From the IMG/VR virus record IMGVR_UViG_2734482785_000014, positions 1-12,688 of that record: DNA of 12,688 nt, one strand, 5' to 3'. A model generated the notes under the pieces. That model saw nothing but the letters and a program-made list of their open reading frames with translations. It was not told where the DNA came from and made no database searches. A program made the position numbers and the translations under genes. Positions within the stretch are counted from its first letter, which is position 1. Each line of letters opens with the position of its first letter. Shown in pieces: positions 6,429 to 6,665 of this stretch. Origin of the DNA: a virus (taxonomy: Duplodnaviria > Heunggongvirae > Uroviricota > Caudoviricetes).

Positions 6429-6453
6429 CAGGTTTTGTAAATTATTTGTTCGC

Positions 6454-6597
6454 GGTTGTTCCAGGTTGTTCGGTGATTCTGGCTGATGTTTACATACTGA
6501 TTTTTATGTATATGTTGGCGTGTGGCACTCAGACGTGAGCCGCCACAATGCCGCCTGACCCCCTGCGCGATGCCGGGTTGATCTGCGAGATGCCGAG
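6454..6597 (+). promoter_or_regulatory. Repeat-rich control region upstream of the capsid operon (candidate activator-dependent late promoter)
   Basis: Direct repeat GGTTGTTC at 6454-6461 and 6464-6471. Inverted repeats TACATA/TATGTA (6491-6510) and TGTGGC/GCCACA (6521-6547). Direct repeat CTGCG(C/A)GATGCCG(G/A)G at 6563-6577 and 6583-6597, 20 bp apart. No good sigma70 -35/-10 pair is visible before the ATG at 6666. Confidence 0.3.
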
Positions 6598-6665
6598 AGT
6601 GTCGGGCGGCGCTCCCTCCGTGTTGGTTTCACGTCCTGAATCTTAACCAATACGAGAAAACCTTC

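Follow-up and report, generated by a model that had tools for sequence, protein, structure and literature searches.

Satellites of the capsid-forming PICI (cf-PICI) type make capsids of their own and take only tails from phages, and we found no account in the literature of how capsid synthesis is timed. The question of how the capsid gene is controlled arises at positions 6430 to 6665 of the DNA analyzed here (the window, i.e., the whole stretch of 12,688 nucleotides), a repeat-rich interval that lies directly upstream of an HK97-type capsid gene. A sequence-only reading had taken this interval for a promoter-poor regulatory region and a likely entry point for helper control. The interpretation that we favor, with moderate confidence, is that the interval controls the cf-PICI capsid and packaging operon in cis, that it is driven by AlpA, and that it includes a structured leader.

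Pfam scans and gene order identified the window as an E. coli cf-PICI satellite. The cf-PICI head set (HK97-type capsid, protease, portal, connector, HNH, TerS, and TerL) was entirely within the window, and tail genes were absent (Table 1). The DUF927 pri-rep gene and the single gene direction were also seen inside the window; int, alpA, and the island ends lie beyond it, and both int and alpA were found in all of the whole-length relatives. In complete relatives, the island stops one small open reading frame (ORF) past terL.

Table 1. Genes and regulatory features of the window
Feature	Position	Strand	Basis or comment
Bro-N protein	55-639		Pfam
DUF4222 protein	2720-3019		Pfam
DUF927 primase-helicase (pri-rep)	3016-5139		Pfam
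SSB	5376-5801		Pfam
PerC-family protein	5805-6098		Pfam
orf82	6144-6392		Small ORF; phrog_1957; stop codon ends at 6392
Intrinsic terminator	6399-6431	+	Stem AAAGGCCCGG/CCGGGUCUUU, then U tract; closes the replication/accessory block
TTTTGTAAAT	6433-6442	+	Most conserved upstream motif; about -90 to -81 from the predicted start
Three TTGTTC boxes	6446-6471 (6446, 6456, 6466)	+	Exact 10-bp phase; candidate AlpA boxes
-35 hexamer TTTACA	6489-6494	+	Consensus promoter scan; TTT(ac) conserved here
16-bp spacer	6495-6510	+	Conserved T-rich element; TTTTcATGTA in relatives; logo of 115 distinct sequences
-10 hexamer TATGTT	6511-6516	+	TATCTT in most relatives
SL1	6522-6546	+	GUGGC-A-CUCA-GACG-UGAG-CC-GCCAC; hairpin at the predicted transcript 5′ end
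SL2	6550-6610	+	Long stem; sequence free, pairing conserved
Linker CUCCCUCC	6612-6619	+	Pyrimidine rich, single stranded; C/U-rich in nearly all relatives
SL3	6625-6662	+	GGUUUCACGU ... ACGAGAAAACC; ends 3 nt before AUG at 6666
HK97-type capsid	6666-7835		Pfam; AUG at 6666
Prohead protease, portal, connector, HNH, P27-type TerS, TerL			Pfam; follow the capsid gene

The nearest whole-length relatives, those of E. coli 042 and strain 181.1, were 96 to 97% identical. Both islands lie inside terL of an HK97-like prophage and are co-oriented with the prophage late genes, an arrangement that corresponds to the helper-embedded type of Tommasini et al. (2023; PMC10111431). The loci L204 (E. coli 042) and L206 had both features of this type, namely co-oriented insertion in a prophage late gene and a doubled TGTATTGC on both att arms. 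In L204 (positions 2036 to 3064 and 18295 to 19038), and likewise in L206, terL is split and the prophage has its own capsid, portal, and TerS genes. Thus, with a satellite that carries a full HK97-type head module inserted in terL, the matching gene of the probable helper is split by the satellite. Helper-embedded relatives of the L204/L206 type encode two AlpA paralogues.

When the capsid protein was used as the query, 80 loci were recovered from Enterobacterales and Pasteurellaceae. A search with the SL1 motif (see below) yielded 120 viral contigs, most of them 14 to 18 kb in length, and the phage records with this motif were only apparent cf-PICIs that had been deposited as phages. In the case of the 106-kb record of Klebsiella phage P12620-1 (PQ569648), a cf-PICI-like block is located at the end of the record (98 to 106 kb). 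It contains a primase-like gene, the same promoter with SL1, and capsid, protease, and portal genes, and it may be a co-assembled satellite.

Elsewhere in the window, Rfam matches to isrK (1837 to 1913; 80 bits), the C4 antisense RNA (1935 to 2022; 75 bits), and the c4 a1b1 target (1824 to 1876) were observed. These matches are inside a long ORF at 955 to 2268, whose "Ash" Pfam match covers the same DNA, and they are flanked by a promoter-like site at 1801 to 1830 and terminators at 1891 to 1909. The segment at 1824 to 2022 resembles an RNA immunity module of the P4/P1 type, and the long ORF is therefore unlikely to represent a true gene across this segment.

The capsid operon appears to be insulated from the genes that precede it. 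Immediately after the orf82 stop codon is a strong intrinsic terminator with a folding energy of -16.8 kcal/mol (z score of -3.7; none of 200 shuffles was equally stable), and this terminator would block ordinary read-through into the capsid operon. Adjacent to it is TTTTGTAAAT, which was near-invariant among 112 anchored upstream regions and was also present in the prototype cf-PICI EcCIEDL933 and in relatives from Photorhabdus, Xenorhabdus, and Pasteurellaceae. Because TTTTGTAAAT is kept across hosts with differing AlpA proteins, it hints at a host factor.

The statement that the interval has no good σ70 promoter did not hold up. TTTACA and TATGTT, which together match the consensus at 9 of 12 positions, are separated by 16 bp (the range for such promoters is 16 to 18 bp), and their position is conserved. 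Across 115 distinct homologous regions, the -10 hexamer and the T-rich spacer were the best-conserved upstream columns (consensus TTTac ... TTTTcATGTATATcTT), and this degree of conservation is unusual for a spacer. The -10-like hexamer was located at a single fixed offset from SL1 in nearly all of these sequences, which led us to place the predicted transcription start at 6522 to 6524, the first bases of SL1. The -35 hexamer can also be read as part of a further TGTTTAC unit in phase with the TTGTTC boxes. Only three + strand promoter-like sites were found in the whole window, and each heads a gene block; the other two precede the isrK/C4 RNA genes and ssb.

Many relatives, including L014, L016, L018, L028, and L061, have a terminator-like GC hairpin and T-run just upstream of the -10 hexamer. 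This hairpin sits between the boxes and the -10 hexamer and overlaps the -35 position, where the window has TTTACA; hence, the region comes in two architectural variants. A σ54 reading of the TGGCAC in SL1 was rejected by eye, given that the GG-to-GC spacing is wrong and that relatives have TGACAC. Inspection by eye also revealed no convincing resemblance to the consensus sites of IHF, CRP, ArcA, PhoP, OmpR, or H-NS.

The direct and inverted repeats that had been reported in the interval are all present. The 10-bp direct-repeat pair GGTTGTTC had been undercounted, however, since it is really three TTGTTC units (6446, 6456, and 6466) rather than two, with TTGTTCG repeated at 6446 and 6466. None of 2,000 composition-preserving shuffles contained the hexamer three times in exact 10-bp phase. 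Tandem direct repeats about one helical turn apart, as seen here, have the layout of an excisionase-type array.

Arrays of the same kind were found at other sites in related islands. In L001, whose intergenic region is 99.6% identical to that of the window, TTGTTC-N4-TTGTTC arrays are located just inside attL and attR, upstream of alpA, and before the capsid gene (13 versus 2.6 expected; 0 of 100 shuffles). In EcCIEDL933, arrays occur on each att arm, in the int-alpA interval, and ahead of the capsid gene (12 versus 2.3 expected; 0 of 100 shuffles), and the 26-mer array upstream of alpA nearly equals the capsid array. The classical PICI EcCICFT073 has arrays on both arms and six units between int and alpA (10 versus 2.6 expected; 0 of 100 shuffles), and no array was found before its own lambda-type capsid gene. 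In addition, about 300 E. coli genomes share with the window only a 39-nt module consisting of TTTTGTAAAT plus the boxes.

The type of box also followed the type of AlpA. Phased pairs of each island's own box units were enriched upstream of alpA (22 versus 6.7 expected in 32 islands). Islands with AlpA clusters 1, 3, 5, and 7, three of which have an S-V wing, had TTGTTC-class boxes at a ratio of 16:0, and islands with AlpA clusters that have a GRNSCAW wing had them at a ratio of 5:11 (Fisher estimate of about 3e-5, which ignores shared ancestry). A whole-array self-match test in 50 islands was not significant overall (mean of 19.4 for self and 19.1 for cross matches). In the helper-embedded relatives L204 and L206, the boxes ahead of the capsid gene are perfect, and arrays are lacking at the att sites and upstream of alpA, the sole att-side trace being a degenerate run beside the attL arm motif. 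Thus, the cognate AlpA of this island may not read the boxes. The TGTATTGC att motif of helper-embedded islands was not found near the capsid promoter. In L001, a doubled motif (GGTGTAGTTAAT; GGTGTAGT(C/T)AAT at 5478 to 5510 and 19913 to 19936) adjoins the TTGTTC arrays just inside attL and attR, on both att arms, and parallels the doubled TGTATTGC reported for helper-embedded islands.

Previous work showed that AlpA activates its own promoter region in trans and that helpers induce alpA (PMC6092414), and overexpression of EcCIEDL933 alpA alone, in the absence of a helper, yielded filled capsids (10.1101/2025.02.11.637232). Based on this work, the arrays at att sites and alpA, and the way in which box type tracks AlpA type, we infer that AlpA recognizes the TTGTTC boxes and that the capsid promoter is part of its regulon. 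The putative activator of the capsid promoter would then be the satellite's own helper-induced AlpA. Because helpers switch on alpA and EcCIEDL933 alpA alone gives capsids, helper control of the operon is probably indirect. In this respect the proposal that the interval is an entry point for helper control survives in modified form: control probably passes through AlpA, and the EcCIEDL933 alpA overexpression result speaks against a directly acting helper protein. For islands in the helper-embedded arrangement of the nearest relatives, control could also come from late transcripts of the helper that read through the island, provided that this transcription is terminator resistant (PMC10111431).

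Downstream of the promoter, the interval corresponds to a leader of about 145 nt that contains three stem-loops and ends 3 nt before the capsid ATG. To examine covariation, we used 47 leaders that were no more than 95% identical and aligned them with plain MAFFT, so the alignment was not fitted to structure. In the three helices, 94.2% of cells were paired, compared to 36 to 43% when the 3′ partners were slid by 1 to 3 columns. Changes on both sides were found in 15 pairs and 96 cells, and none of 500 shuffles reached any of the five measures. Pairing was 94.2% on the + strand versus 92.6% on the - strand, which barely separates the two; the + strand was therefore chosen mainly from context. 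A covariance model built from the 47-leader alignment detected a single copy in the window, at 6521 to 6668 (79.7 bits; E value of 1.5e-20). The leader is a structured cis-acting RNA whose pairs are kept through compensatory changes.

SL1 folds on its own (-11.4 kcal/mol), was paired in 99.5% of cells, and showed three compensatory pairs (GGC/GCC to GAC/GUC, A-U to C-G, and G-C to A-U). In every sufficiently long locus (more than 140 loci), the SL1 motif was 115 to 145 nt upstream of a capsid homologue, which indicates that it belongs to the capsid gene's leader. In SL2, all 12 outer pairs were changed on both sides. The pairs of SL3 were maintained in 96.5% of cells, with one-sided (wobble) changes only, and no good Shine-Dalgarno sequence follows this stem-loop. 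The window SL3 is less stable than an overlapping alternative, 6619-6628/6645-6654, which is the energy minimum.

These structures account for the remaining repeats. The 20-bp-spaced direct repeat (CTGCGCGATGCCG at 6563 and CTGCGAGATGCCG at 6583) is indeed present, as are the two inverted repeats, 6550-6564/6596-6610 and the alternative pairing named above; a 13-mer repeat with no more than one mismatch arose in 7 of 300 shuffles. The first inverted repeat is the SL2 stem, and the direct repeat (6563 to 6575 and 6583 to 6595) lies inside SL2, where it corresponds to two small GNRA-plus-one-loop hairpins in most relatives. Rather than promoter elements, both inverted repeats and the repeat with 20-bp spacing are RNA stem-loops of the covarying 5′ leader. 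The analysis supports the idea of a regulatory region before the capsid and packaging operon, insulated by a terminator and equipped with phased activator-type boxes. About 60% of the interval (6522 to 6665) is better described as transcribed leader than as promoter DNA.

No Rfam match was found in 6393 to 6665 at E values up to 1, and a tRNA scan found no tRNA. The possibility that the leader is a target of the island's C4/isrK RNAs was rejected because the duplex energies were no better than those of shuffles. A leader peptide was also rejected; the 32-codon ORF at 6548 to 6646 is not conserved, as relatives lack the ATG. In our preferred reading, the 5′-terminal hairpin would protect the mRNA, and SL3 and the CU-rich linker would organize initiation at a gene that lacks a good ribosome binding site (RBS). 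It is also conceivable, but distinctly unlikely, that SL1-SL2 represents a new class of satellite-specific regulatory RNA, which could act on polymerase in a put-like manner or serve as a docking site for a helper- or satellite-encoded capsid-licensing protein. The invariant GACG loop and bulges of SL1, the put-like placement at the predicted +1, and the terminator-like end of the EcCIEDL933 leader are in line with this idea, which, if true, would provide an RNA-level checkpoint for cf-PICI capsid building.

Alternatively, the operon might be transcribed mainly by terminator-resistant polymerase arriving from upstream, with SL1-SL2 serving either as an HK022 put-type antitermination signal or as a loading site; the polymerase could be modified by the helper's Q (the island being inside a prophage late operon) or by AlpA acting as an antiterminator. 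The closest relatives lie within a prophage late operon and share its orientation, and passive helper-driven late transcription has been proposed for helper-embedded islands (PMC10111431). The AlpA of P. aeruginosa is an antiterminator with a DNA element between the -35 and -10 hexamers (PMC7969949), and the window's spacer is unusually conserved; putL consists of two adjacent stem-loops from the transcript 5′ end (PMC9378689), as SL1-SL2 would. The hairpin and U8 just before the capsid AUG of EcCIEDL933 and the terminator-like hairpin just upstream of the -10 hexamer in many relatives point in the same direction. However, no + strand terminator-like site was found in the window's leader (6522 to 6665), no strong + strand terminators were found within the operon, and the leader covariance model had no match in the HK022 genome at E values up to 1, nor did the leader match Rfam. 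Moreover, cf-PICIs at ordinary chromosomal sites (L001 and EcCIEDL933) have the same region and no helper promoter upstream, and a -10 hexamer at a fixed position is hard to explain without initiation here. We consider read-through unlikely to be the main source of capsid transcription.

It is similarly unlikely that the phased boxes belong to a protein other than AlpA, i.e., that they are reused integrase arm-type sites or sites for a host winged-helix regulator, a nucleoid protein, or an element protein such as orf82. Arrays on both att arms and tandem 10-bp repeats do fit integrase arm-type sites, and the authors of PMC10111431 were undecided between Int and AlpA for their att motif. In contrast, some 1.4 kb separates the int-alpA array from the att core, a distance too great for an arm site, and the array sits in a region that responds to AlpA in trans (PMC6092414). 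TTTTGTAAAT and the 10-bp architecture are maintained all the way from E. coli to Pasteurellaceae although the AlpA and Int proteins differ, as might be expected for a host protein, but the class of box tracks the class of AlpA. As for orf82, in 28 of 49 islands no other gene stands between it and the region, and its EcCIEDL933 counterpart shares 43% identity, but it was missing or undetected in the other 21. Although its position makes orf82 a candidate co-regulator, it was rejected as the regulator: it had only close homologues, no family annotation, and no known fold, and its AlphaFold model (pLDDT of 49) was unusable. The PerC-family gene is located two genes upstream of the control region in the window and in EcCIEDL933 and is absent from L001; since L001 has a 99.6% identical control region, PerC is not required in cis. 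Finally, helical-phase direct repeats together with an AT-rich stretch are reminiscent of iterons or TerS sites, and the repeats might act on DNA as a cos/pac packaging site or replication origin. We rejected this role on position and regard it as highly improbable. The ends of vB_KppS-Ant, a 16.5-kb cf-PICI record of an induced prophage, lie between the HNH-adjacent ORF and terS, which corresponds to about 10570 to 10690 in the window, whereas the low-GC gap by the primase gene (5140 to 5375) is at the usual PICI origin position (PMC6092414). Furthermore, the region travels with the capsid gene rather than with rep, and its stem pairs covary while their sequence is free. The likely cos site of the window is the gap that separates terS from the small ORF following HNH (about 10570 to 10690), with a hairpin at 10525 to 10544.

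The favored interpretation, an AlpA-driven promoter with a structured leader, suggests the following course of events. Transcription of the replication block would stop at the terminator at 6399 to 6431, and the operon would be served by its own σ70-type promoter, with a start at about 6522. TTTTGTAAAT and three TTGTTC boxes, which would lie on one face of the helix, precede this promoter, and AlpA, the satellite's own winged-helix regulator of the excisionase type, most likely binds the boxes. A helper phage would trigger AlpA synthesis, and AlpA at the boxes would thus turn on the capsid operon together with excision and AlpA auto-activation. The predicted transcript opens with SL1, followed by the long SL2, the CU-rich linker, and SL3, which abuts the start codon. 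This leader probably determines how stable the mRNA is and how translation begins on a capsid gene that has no good RBS.

The cf-PICI element family and its dependence on AlpA were already known. We found neither a description in the literature nor an Rfam entry for the promoter, the box arrays shared among sites, or the covarying leader, and these three appear to be new. Together they provide a testable map of the switch, with a candidate AlpA box common to the att arms, the alpA promoter region, and the capsid promoter, a defined promoter, and a three-hairpin leader. Should AlpA indeed bind the boxes, excision, amplification of AlpA itself, and capsid synthesis would all be coupled through a single protein, and the AlpA regulon of Gram-negative PICIs could be predictable from sequence.

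P2 Cox, P4 Vis, and lambda Xis are small winged-helix proteins that act on tandem direct repeats about one helical turn apart. Their boxes serve both att sites and promoters, and Cox and Vis regulate the late promoters of satellite P4. The boxes in the window differ from these in sequence, binding here is predicted from the distribution of sites, and the window's own island type lacks clear att arrays. The P2 Ogr and P4 Delta late promoters are activator-dependent promoters of a helper and a satellite, and they are defined by a TGT-N12-ACA dyad near -55. A motif search of 6430 to 6665 confirmed the earlier observation that this dyad is absent here. The P. aeruginosa AlpA and lambda Q systems are similar to the window in their AlpA-family regulator, conserved DNA between the -35 and -10 hexamers, and structured downstream leader (PMC7969949). 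However, the P. aeruginosa AlpA element GGGACG-N5-GGTA is absent here, the window's leader has no terminator, and the window boxes, unlike that element, are upstream of the -35 hexamer, as for an activator. The put RNA of HK022, like the predicted SL1-SL2 arrangement, consists of two adjacent 5′-end stem-loops in a phage-type operon (PMC9378689), but we detected no sequence or structure similarity, SL1 is much shorter, and downstream terminators are not evident in the window.

The closest comparison is with EcCIEDL933, for whose regulatory region we found no description in published accounts. Its packaging operon has the same gene order, and its capsid protein is 63% identical. The promoter and the rest of the leader cannot be aligned with those of the window, and the covariance model misses EcCIEDL933. 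Its leader ends with GUCCUGG...CCAGGAC and eight U residues before the capsid AUG (L205, 10215 to 10254), which looks like a terminator or attenuator and which the window's family lacks. On the other hand, EcCIEDL933 has the same terminator, followed by the module of TTTTGTAAAT and three TTGTTC units, which is 95% identical over 39 nt. In the place of SL1, it has a similar hairpin, GUGGU-G-CCAG-GACG-CUGG-G-GCCAC, adjoined by a long hairpin, and this SL1-like structure has the same GACG loop, a fully compensated inner stem, and one G-U pair.
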